A model generated the notes under the pieces. The model searched no databases. It was given only the letters and a program-made list of their open reading frames with translations, and was not told the DNA's origin. Positions 2,798 to 54,702 of a stretch of DNA of 64,000 bases are shown here, one piece after another (position 1 is the first letter of the stretch; each line of letters starts with the position of its first letter). The stretch lies in the NCBI RefSeq assembly GCF_002854065.1, contig NZ_CP024147.1; one strand, given 5' to 3'. Position numbers and translations under genes: made by a program. Source of the DNA: Escherichia coli. Its GTDB lineage: Bacteria; Pseudomonadota; Gammaproteobacteria; Enterobacterales; Enterobacteriaceae.

Positions 2798-3647
2798 ATG
2801 CTTCCGCCAGCGGCGGCAAAATCAATTCATCGCTCTCATGCTGCTGGGTGTAGCGCATCACTTCCAGTACGCGCAACCCCGCGCGGTGCACCGCATCGTT
2901 TAATGCCTTCCCTTTCAGCAAACCACTGATAAGCTGAGCACAAAACAGGTCGCCAGTCCCTTTCAGGTCGGTTTTTACCCGTGAATGGGAAATGACATTC
3001 ACGCTGTCGGCAGTGACCACCACAACCTGCATCTCCTGATTTTCTTCATTACCGGAGGCGCTGGTAATCACCACCCATTTTAATGTGTCTGAAAGCAGAC
3101 TTTTTGCGGCAGCAATGGCACTGTCGAGATCGCGGCAATTTTTACCGGTCAGGATTTCCAACTCAAAGATATTGGGGGTAATTCCCTGCGCCAGCGGCAG
3201 TAAATATTGTCGATACGCTTCGGGAAGGTCAGGTTTGACATAAATTCCGCTGTCAATATCGCCAATCACCGGATCGACCATGATCAATAGGTCAGGATGG
3301 TCTTTGCGTAGCGCAGTCAGCCACTCGGCAAGGATTTTGATTTGCGATGCCGTTCCCATATAGCCCGTGGTTACAGCACGAAGTTGGCGCAGCGCATCAC
3401 GCTCCTGAAGCGCACGCAAATAGCCGCTAAACCATTCGTCCGGAATCGCACCACCGTAGAAAGTGTCATAATGCGGCGTATTGCTCAGCAATACCGTCGG
3501 CACGGCAAAGACATTCAGGCCGTTCTGTTTGATAGCAGGCACGGCAATGCTGTTGCCTACGCTGCCGTACACTACCTGCGACTGCACGGCGACGATATCC
3601 GCCTGCAGTGCCCTGCTCTTATCGTTAAACAACAACAAACTACTCAT
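2796..3647 (-). CDS. pdxK: Pyridoxal/pyridoxine/pyridoxamine kinase
   Basis: 283-aa ORF of the ribokinase-like PdxK family, convergent with crr. Confidence 0.9.
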
Positions 3648-3660
3648 TTAATTTTTTCTC

Positions 3661-4120
<460 letters not shown>

Positions 4121-4122
4121 TC

Positions 4123-5034
4123 TTAAATCCCCGCCCCCTGACTAAAATGCTCTTCCCCAAACACCCCGGTGGAAAGGTAGCGATCGCCACGATCGCAGAT
4201 GATCGCTACCACCACCGCACCAGGGTTAGCTTTTGCCACCCGCAGTGCTCCGGCAACCGCGCCGCCGGAGCTGACGCCACAGAATATTCCTTCCCGCACC
4301 GCCAGTTCGCGCATGGTGTTTTCCGCATCGCGCTGATGAATATCCAGCACCTCATCCACCAGAGAAGCGTTGAAAATCCCCGGCAGATATTCCGCAGGCC
4401 AGCGGCGAATGCCGGGAATGCTACTGCCCTCTTCCGGCTGCAGGCCAACAATGGTCACCGGTTTGGATTGTTCGCGCATAAAGCGTGAAACGCCGGTGAT
4501 AGTGCCGGTTGTTCCCATGCTGGAGACAAAATGGGTAATGCGCCCGCCAGTCTGCTGCCAGATTTCCGGCCCGGTAGTGGTGTAATGGGCGTAAGGGTTA
4601 TCGGGATTGTTGAACTGATCGAGCAGCTTTCCTTCACCACGATTCGCCATCTCCAGCGCCAGATCGCGCGCACCTTCCATGCCCTGCTCTTTGGTGACAA
4701 GAATCAGTTCCGCACCATAAGCACGCATCGCCGCACGGCGTTCCTGACTCATGTTGTCGGGCATCAGCAATTTCATGCGATAGCCTTTAAGCGCGGCAAT
4801 CATTGCCAGCGCAATGCCGGTGTTACCACTGGTGGCTTCGATTAACACATCACCCGGTTTAATTTCCCCGCGCTTTTCCGCCTCGACGATCATCCAAAGC
4901 GCAGCACGATCTTTCACCGAACCTGCCGGGTTATTGCCTTCCAGTTTTAACCACACTTCACTGCCGTTATTCGGCCCCATTCGCTGCAACTTCACCAGAG
5001 GCGTATTGCCTATTGTTTGTTCTAATGTACTCAC
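4123..5034 (-). CDS. cysM: Cysteine synthase B (O-acetylserine sulfhydrylase B)
   Basis: PLP-dependent cysteine synthase fold; start refined to the GTG (VSTLEQTIGNTPLV) inside the longer track ORF; adjacent to cysAWUP. Confidence 0.9.
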   Translation of the reverse strand: MSTLEQTIGNTPLVKLQRMGPNNGSEVWLKLEGNNPAGSVKDRAALWMIVEAEKRGEIKPGDVLIEATSGNTGIALAMIAALKGYRMKLLMPDNMSQERRAAMRAYGAELILVTKEQGMEGARDLALEMANRGEGKLLDQFNNPDNPYAHYTTTGPEIWQQTGGRITHFVSSMGTTGTITGVSRFMREQSKPVTIVGLQPEEGSSIPGIRRWPAEYLPGIFNASLVDEVLDIHQRDAENTMRELAVREGIFCGVSSGGAVAGALRVAKANPGAVVVAIICDRGDRYLSTGVFGEEHFSQGAGI

Positions 5035-5054
5035 GATCTCTGTCCATACGTGGT

Positions 5055-5095
5055 GTCGCCTGATGCGACGCTTGCGCGTCTTATCAGGCCTACAG
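5055..5095. repeat. REP (repetitive extragenic palindromic) element between cysM and cysA
   Basis: Sequence cgcctgatgcgacgcttgcgcgtcttatcaggcctaca is an imperfect palindrome of the REP type. Confidence 0.55.
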
Positions 5096-5167
5096 GTTAC
5101 AAACCTTGCCATTAAAAAACCCGGATCGCGGGAAGCGCCTCCGGGCGTTTAACATTCACTCAACCTA

Positions 5168-6265
5168 TCAGGCGCTTTGTGCGAGAGCAAGTTCCTCATC
5201 TCGGGTTTCGATACGCTCGTCGCCGTTATACAGCCGCGCATGTTGCAGACCAACGAATAAACGCTCGCCACGCTGCGGGGCATCGTCGCCATGCATCACG
5301 ACCGTCAGCGGTTCGTTGTACCACCCCAGCGGCTGCACCACTAATTGGGTGTAGTGACCTTTCGGGCTGGCTTCCAGTACCTGTACCGGCAGCGGCGAAT
5401 CGAGGCTGGTACGGCGGCTGATATCCACTTCCCACGGGCGCAGGAAGAGATCCACCGGCCCCTGATACGCAGGTGTGTAGCCCAGCGGCCAGCGATGTGC
5501 GCCAACATGGAACTGCCCGCCGCGAATGGTTCCCTGCAGGCGGTTCACTTCGCCCATAAATTCGAGCACAAAACGGGTCGCCGGTTCGCGCCATACCTGA
5601 TCCGGCGCGTCAGCCTGTTCAATATTGCCCTGGCTCATCACAACTACACGATCAGCTACTTCGGTCGCTTCTTCCTGATCGTGGGTCACAAAAACGCTGG
5701 TGAATTTTAGTTCTTCATGGAGTTGACGCAGCCAGCGACGCAGCTCTTTACGCACCTGCGCATCCAACGCGCCAAACGGTTCATCAAGCAGCAGAATTTG
5801 CGGTTCTACAGCAAGCGCACGCGCCAGCGCTACACGCTGTTTCTGGCCGCCGGAAAGCTGCGCCGGATAACGATCCGCCAGATGGGCAAGCTGGACCATT
5901 TCCAGCAATTTTGTCACTTTCGCTTTGATCGCCGCGGCATTCGGGCGCTCGCGACGCGGCAGCACCGTCAGGCCAAAAGCGATATTGTCGAATACCGTCA
6001 TATGGCGGAACAGCGCGTAATGCTGGAACACGAAACCGACTTTACGGTCGCGCGCATGCAGGCGGCTGACGTCGGTACCGTGGAAACGGATATGCCCGCT
6101 GGTTTGATGCTCCAGCCCGGCGATAATCCGCAGCAGCGTGGTTTTCCCGGAGCCGGAGGGCCCCAGCAACGCGACCATCTGACCAGAAGGAATATCCAGT
6201 GAGATATCGTTCAGCACCTGGGTGCGACCAAAAGACTTCTTAATATTGGCAATCTCAATGCTCAT
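5168..6265 (-). CDS. cysA: Sulfate/thiosulfate ABC transporter ATP-binding protein
   Basis: 365-aa ORF with Walker [10 protein letters not shown] and ABC signature LSGGQKQR. Confidence 0.95.
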
Positions 6266-38530: not shown

Positions 38531-38610
38531 TGGTGATCGCCGGATGCTGATTGCCGGATGCGACGCTGACGCGTCTTATCCGGCCTACAGCGTCTTATCC
38601 GGCCTACATG
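38531..38610. repeat. Cluster of REP elements (BIME-like) downstream of tktB
   Basis: gccggatgcgacgctgacgcgtcttatccggcctaca followed by a second gcgtcttatccggcctaca copy. Confidence 0.65.
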
Positions 38611-49870: not shown

Positions 49871-49902
49871 GGCCGGATAAGGCGTTCACGCCGCATCCGG
49901 CC
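49871..49902. repeat. REP element downstream of ypfN
   Basis: gccggataaggcgttcacgccgcatccggcc palindrome. Confidence 0.5.
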
Positions 49903-54490: not shown

Positions 54491-54553
54491 CTTTATCACT
54501 CCTGGGTGTGAATTAACGTTTTAAAATCTTTTGCTGTCTGGTGTGCCGGATGT

Positions 54554-54585
<32 letters not shown>

Positions 54586-54702
54586 ACTACGTCCGACAAA
54601 CAAATTTCGTGCGAATTACCGCTAAAATCGCGTTTTCCTGCCGACGCACACGTTTGCGTATCATATCAGAAAAAAGGGCCGGATGATTCCAGCCCTGTAT
54701 TT

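Follow-up and report, generated by a model that had tools for sequence, protein, structure and literature searches.

We show that the convergent genes yfeK and cysM, which nearly touch at their ends in the 64-kb stretch of Escherichia coli DNA analysed here (the window), are arranged there as in the majority of E. coli genomes, so that the allele of the window is not peculiar. Very probably this is the empty, ancestral yfeK/cysM junction, the K-12-type minority carrying a horizontally acquired cassette of ~960 bp with the gene yfeS, inserted once between the ends of yfeK and cysM and spread by recombination.

The yfeK/cysM junction in the window

The genes and further features at the junction are compiled in Table 1. 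On the plus strand the stop codon of yfeK reads TAA (4118-4120), and the stop codon of cysM, a gene on the minus strand, is seen there as TTA (4123-4125); the earlier note on this DNA had placed both stops 2 bp apart, and sequence and ORF list show its coordinates being exact. Our gene calls match the RefSeq annotation of the 100%-identical record NZ_CM128593.1 (E. coli strain 100416), in which yfeK is named, and for cysM, the last gene of the cysPUWAM cluster, RefSeq annotates a protein of 303 aa. The cysM frame is open further upstream to an ATG at 5112 (329 aa), and RefSeq starts the 303-aa protein at a GTG at 5034; the extension from 5034 to 5112, which crosses a REP element, is probably not translated. 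This REP-type palindromic element (5053-5090), in the gap from the cysA stop to the cysM start, gives an Rfam match to naRNA4 below threshold, with 36.6 bits, the gathering score being 59.5.

The earlier note had given the gene order pdxK, yfeK, yfeS, cysM for K-12, with an extra gene of about 0.7 kb, and had suggested that the window may carry a precise yfeS-lacking allele. This order is correct in the K-12 sequence NC_000913.3, the extra gene being yfeS (735 bp, b2420). The alignment with K-12, in which the 2-bp junction is not found, reveals a scar-free yfeS-less allele in the window, with the qualification that this is the majority state. The window YfeK ends with ...VPAQ*, the K-12 YfeK with ...VPAEGN*. 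Within the 64-kb window, to which the search was confined as a part of the genome, tblastn with K-12 YfeS gave a best match of only E=1.4 for a yfeS copy elsewhere and no ORF with a WGR domain (PF05406).

Table 1. Features at the yfeK/cysM junction (window coordinates)
Feature	Coordinates	Strand	Description	Basis
Sigma-E-type yfeK promoter GAAACTT-N16-TCAAA	3691..3718	+	identical in K-12; presumably active here	pattern search
yfeK	3752..4120	+	122 aa, DUF5329, signal-peptide-like N terminus	ORF list and Pfam PF17263, E=1.8e-31
9-bp perfect inverted repeat ATTGCGCAG N16 CTGCGCAAT	4085..4118		end of yfeK; not a terminator	
Allele-specific 7 nt CAATAAT	4115..4121		966 nt instead in K-12-type genomes (yfeK tail, yfeS and REP spacer)	alignment, junction print-outs
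Gap between convergent stop codons	4121..4122		2 bp, TC	sequence
cysM (cysteine synthase B)	4123..5034	-		ORF, RefSeq annotation of identical record, tblastn
10-bp stem-loop	4176..4210		in cysM 3' coding region; z -3.64 in window; coding by-product	

Distribution of the two alleles in E. coli

A presence/absence survey of yfeS, as proposed in the earlier note, covered 5,426 complete E. coli genomes and identified yfeS in 1,387 of these (26%). The contiguous yfeK/cysM junction, scored as a full-length match to an 80-nt junction probe, is present in 4,035 (74%), and both classes are complementary, adding up to 5,422 of the 5,426 genomes. All sampled full-length junction matches (22/22) have the same length as the aligned probe segment, showing that the 2-bp spacing is the norm. 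The empty junction is found in O157:H7, which is the closest named lineage to the window, O111:H8, APEC O78, NRG 857C, Nissle 1917 and the type strain ATCC 11775, among others, while yfeS-bearing strains include K-12 derivatives, NCTC86 and MRE162.

The window is 100% identical over 24 kb, including the junction, to strains CUWW06 and 100416. The explanation that yfeS is missing owing to an assembly or sequencing artefact is refuted, with virtually no probability left to it, by this identity to two independent complete genomes and by the occurrence of the junction in 4,035 complete genomes; for the latter reason, chance is not an issue either.

Some copies of yfeS are damaged: an IS1A insertion splits the gene in strain LR-03, strain ET650 yields a half-length match and Shigella flexneri a 155-aa partial protein. 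These damaged copies are consistent with yfeS being a dispensable accessory gene.

The additional segment in K-12

In NC_000913.3, yfeK (375 bp) is followed by yfeS, and 955 nt separate the stop codons of yfeK and cysM. By alignment, with the coordinates of the extra segment worked out by hand, 966 nt in K-12 (locus L001, 4706-5671) stand against the 7 nt of the window, resulting in a net difference of 959 nt, which agrees with the locus spans of 2360 nt (K-12) versus 1401 nt (window). Homology between the window and K-12 extends to …GTGCCTGCG and restarts at CTTAAATCC…. The K-12 segment contains a different yfeK end, yfeS, a hairpin and a spacer of 188 bp that includes two REP-like units; REP-like copies matching this yfeS-cysM spacer are present in the window at ~38552-38608, 49871-49902 and 54551-54590. 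Just 3' of yfeS, strain APEC_AN-25 has a perfect 11-bp hairpin, TTTGTCGGCAG-CAACAA-CTGCCGACAAA (locus L026, 1494-1540), and in K-12 (L001, 5485-5520) the same hairpin is 16 nt shorter and has lost its 3' arm.

At both ends of the K-12 segment we identified an 8-bp direct repeat, ATTAATCC. The yfeK stop codon of K-12 is part of the left copy, and the right copy abuts the cysM stop codon, where the empty allele has AATAATC, i.e. the original yfeK stop context. The same repeat flanks the yfeS cassette in APEC_AN-25 and in a Pseudocitrobacter metagenome-assembled genome (MAG), and AATAATC is the single related copy at the empty site. As the repeat is short and contains the palindrome ATTAAT, it makes a weak case for a target duplication. 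The K-12 cassette encodes only yfeS and no transposase or integrase, and by direct reading its ends share no terminal inverted repeats beyond this palindrome.

K-12 YfeS matches the WGR domain PF05406 (E=6e-18). A search of solved structures with YfeS returned as the only match 2ra8, an uncharacterised protein from Bacteroides fragilis, in its N-terminal WGR region, giving no functional lead, and PADLOC found no match to defence systems for YfeS, YfeK or the E. albertii cargo ORFs described below.

Ancestral state of the junction and origin of yfeS

Outgroup loci were collected by a YfeK scan of species-representative genomes followed by tblastn with YfeK, YfeS, CysM and PdxK, and their junctions were printed. 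A tight yfeS-less junction is present in the E. coli species representative, Enterobacteriaceae UBA5654, a Superficieibacter sp., Citrobacter amalonaticus and Entomohabitans. Pseudocitrobacter faecalis, likewise yfeS-less, has the same junction but for one base (CTGCG-CAATAAA-CTTAAATCC), and in Escherichia sp. E1V33 (cryptic clade) the yfeS-less junction is so tight that yfeK and cysM overlap. In the latter (locus L005, 1400-1440), yfeK passes the cysM stop (TCA on the plus strand) before reaching its own stop codon, a TGA within cysM. Relative to E. coli, the genes around yfeK are rearranged in Enterobacter sp. ENT03 (pdxK-cysM-yfeK; locus L010) and in Atlantibacter sp. RC6 (yfeK-pdxK-cysM; locus L015). 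The tight yfeS-less junction apparently is the ancestral arrangement, the direction of change being read from a handful of outgroup genomes, from a scan that recovered neither Salmonella nor E. fergusonii and missed many further genera.

The gene yfeS itself looks horizontally acquired, as judged from composition and relatives. Its GC content is 39%, compared to 46% for yfeK and 56% for cysM. Outside Escherichia, Shigella and Pseudocitrobacter, YfeS relatives show at most 65% identity, the named distant ones in Paenibacillus, Dysgonomonas, Lysinibacillus and Clostridium at most 58%. One relative with 58% identity has as neighbours a methyltransferase and a protein with Ca-binding repeats; we rejected inferring a donor from this context, the neighbourhood being unrelated and uninformative.

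The opposite direction, according to which the allele of the window is derived and yfeS was lost by deletion, e.g. by slipped or illegitimate recombination between the 8-bp ATTAATCC repeats, would find a classic deletion substrate in these direct repeats exactly at both ends of the K-12 segment, and yfeS alleles differing by 2.7% within E. coli indicate that the gene has long been in the species. However, deletion between the repeats predicts …CTGCGGAAGGAAATTAATCCTTAAATCC…, while the window reads …CTGCGCAATAATCTTAAATCC…, and a remnant of the K-12-type junction in a yfeS-less genome would show GAAGGAAATTAATCC followed immediately by TTAAATCC. We accordingly rejected a deletion between short direct repeats, since the junction is not made up of a single repeat copy set between the outer flanks that the filled allele has. 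The predicted product occurs in none of the 5,426 complete genomes (0/5,426), the best full-length match, with 93.1%, being an ordinary empty allele. The empty junction of P. faecalis, the tight yfeS-less junctions in several other genera and the foreign composition and patchy distribution of yfeS also speak against a loss, which we consider highly unlikely. The outgroups, the GC content, the distant relatives, the identity of yfeS between K-12 and the MAG and the absent deletion product together support an insertion of yfeS in the K-12-type minority instead of a deletion in the window.

Probable spread of the cassette

In the Pseudocitrobacter MAG (contig k127_58918; locus L008, 4408-5142), yfeS is found at the same site and with the same junctions as in K-12. 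Its yfeS is 95.9% identical to that of K-12 on the nucleotide level, compared to lower values for the flanking genes (yfeK 80.5%, cysM 89.6%, pdxK 68.8%), all from a single MAG contig. These flanking genes are ~91-92% identical to P. faecalis, which argues against the contig being E. coli contamination. The high identity of yfeS indicates a recent exchange of the cassette between the genera, as far as this single contig can represent them. Within E. coli, the yfeS of APEC_AN-25 is 97.3% identical to that of K-12, with the same junctions and repeats. Because the filled alleles of K-12, APEC_AN-25 and the MAG have left and right junctions and the 8-bp repeat in common, we attribute them to a single insertion event.

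Strain KFu024 provides an example of a recombination breakpoint, as its pdxK-yfeK-yfeS segment is 100% identical to K-12 and its cysM is window-like (98.9% identity to the window, 97.3% to K-12). The divergence among yfeS alleles in E. coli is comparable with that of core genes between lineages; the cassette therefore is old in the species, and it must at times also be lost when filled alleles recombine with empty ones.

Our data favour a model in which a horizontally acquired cassette of ~960 bp would have been inserted a single time between the ends of yfeK and cysM, replacing the last yfeK codons and bringing yfeS, the hairpin and the two REP-like units. The left ATTAATCC copy would supply the new yfeK stop codon after insertion. 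Both alleles would then have been passed on by homologous recombination in the conserved genes on either side, among E. coli strains as well as between Escherichia and Pseudocitrobacter.

Predicted transcription towards and across the junction

The putative promoter of yfeK represents a strong sigma-E consensus 34 nt upstream of the start codon (3752), its -35 element resembling GGAACTT, its -10 element resembling TCAAA and its spacer having the expected length of ~16 nt. In K-12, yfeK and yfeS are reported to form the sigma-E (sigma-24) operon yfeKS (PMC2685091; PMC11502571), and yfeK is among the modelled sigma-E promoters (PMC3326320). As the promoter is intact and yfeS is absent, yfeK of the window would be a one-gene unit and not part of a yfeKS operon; the functional consequence, a single-gene sigma-E-dependent unit, is deduced from the arrangement.

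The earlier note had stated that there is no room for terminators between the stop codons, and this holds: the consensus scan finds no intrinsic terminator near 4100-4250 and none at the junction in either allele. Two repeats were considered as terminator candidates and rejected. For the inverted repeat in the last part of yfeK, the folding energy does not stand out from that of shuffled sequences (z -0.56 and -0.66 on the two strands), and there is no U tract behind it. The stem-loop in the cysM 3' coding region is perfect only in the window allele, its arms varying independently in 15 other loci; across the 16 loci we found no compensatory change and an invariant peptide, AIICDRGDRYL, and it too lacks a U tract. 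The stem results from the repeated GATCGC codons of this peptide. An Rfam scan of 3400-5400 yielded a naRNA4/REP match below threshold (5058-5089), a miRNA match due to chance and nothing else.

Since intergenic space and an intrinsic terminator are both lacking, yfeK transcripts should end antisense inside cysM and transcripts of the cysPUWAM cluster antisense inside yfeK, both transcription units thus being predicted to end within the opposite gene. Rho-dependent termination or processing would presumably determine where these ends lie.

This tail-to-tail arrangement might be functional, with sigma-E-driven yfeK transcription running into cysM and transcription of the cys operon into yfeK, so that transcriptional interference or an RNA duplex would couple cysteine synthesis with envelope stress; K-12 with its 955-nt spacer would lack this coupling. 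The strong consensus promoter close to the yfeK start, the lack of an intrinsic terminator between yfeK and the body of cysM and the conservation of the arrangement, seen in 74% of E. coli genomes and in other genera too, would fit such a role. However, plain ancestry explains the conservation equally well, other species tolerate spacers of 30-85 bp or cargo of 0.5-3.8 kb at this place, which speaks against strong selection for the overlap, and Rho-dependent termination could block meaningful read-through. A functional coupling therefore appears unlikely to us.

Implications

The junction is real but ordinary, and thousands of RefSeq genomes already have it in their annotation. Annotation and comparative studies can treat the arrangement of the window as normal, with no need for a special explanation. 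Caution is needed with K-12 as the reference, which is atypical for E. coli at yfeK/cysM, yfeS being an accessory gene of ~26% of the complete genomes; hence most strains have yfeK as a single-gene unit where the K-12 literature describes the sigma-E operon yfeKS. Some interest remains in a convergent arrangement that lacks an intrinsic terminator, with regard to transcript ends and mutual interference, and in the sharing of the yfeS cassette between genera.

A wider proposal would combine both aspects: the yfeK/cysM boundary could be a cross-genus cargo hotspot, with a single yfeS cassette exchanged between Escherichia and Pseudocitrobacter, and terminator-less transcription from yfeK into cysM could link envelope stress to cysteine/thiosulfate assimilation in yfeS-less E. 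coli. We regard this combination, drawn from gene arrangement, as improbable; if true, the link between envelope stress and cysteine/thiosulfate would be invisible in K-12, in which the genes are parted by the 955-nt insert.

Comparison with cargo hotspots and with other E. coli junctions

Hotspots of variable cargo between conserved core genes are a general pan-genome concept in enterobacteria. The yfeK/cysM boundary resembles these, as different and unrelated cargo is found exactly at this place. In addition to the yfeS cassette, E. albertii NBRC 107761 (locus L006, 4376-6194) carries 1.84 kb in the place of yfeS with two minus-strand ORFs (280 and 175 aa), for which no significant Pfam or PADLOC match was found, the smaller one showing a weak sub-threshold DKNYY match. 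In Citrobacter sedlakii (L012, 4364-8185) the boundary holds 3.8 kb with two large ORFs (628 and ~614-654 aa), one of these with TPR repeats, and in Superficieibacter electus (L013, 4376-4891) 0.53 kb with a 140-aa DUF4440/SnoaL-like ORF whose stop codon abuts that of cysM. It differs from such hotspots in having no integrase, tRNA, transposase or long terminal repeats at the boundary, and the common boundaries probably mark only the place where an insertion spares both coding sequences.

Compared to pdxK-yfeK-yfeS-cysM of K-12 MG1655 (b2418-b2421), the window has the same flanking genes in the same orientation, with 97-99% nucleotide identity for pdxK, yfeK and cysM, and an identical sigma-E promoter of yfeK. 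K-12 differs by its 966 nt in place of the 7 nt of the window and, with these, by the YfeK end (…AEGN instead of …AQ), by yfeS and by the 188-bp spacer with two REP-like units. In contrast, most E. coli, as exemplified by O157:H7, Nissle 1917, ATCC 11775 and APEC O78, share the same 2-bp convergent junction, with RefSeq annotating only yfeK and cysM, and differ from the window by point changes only, amounting to 1-5 mismatches over the 80 nt of the junction probe.
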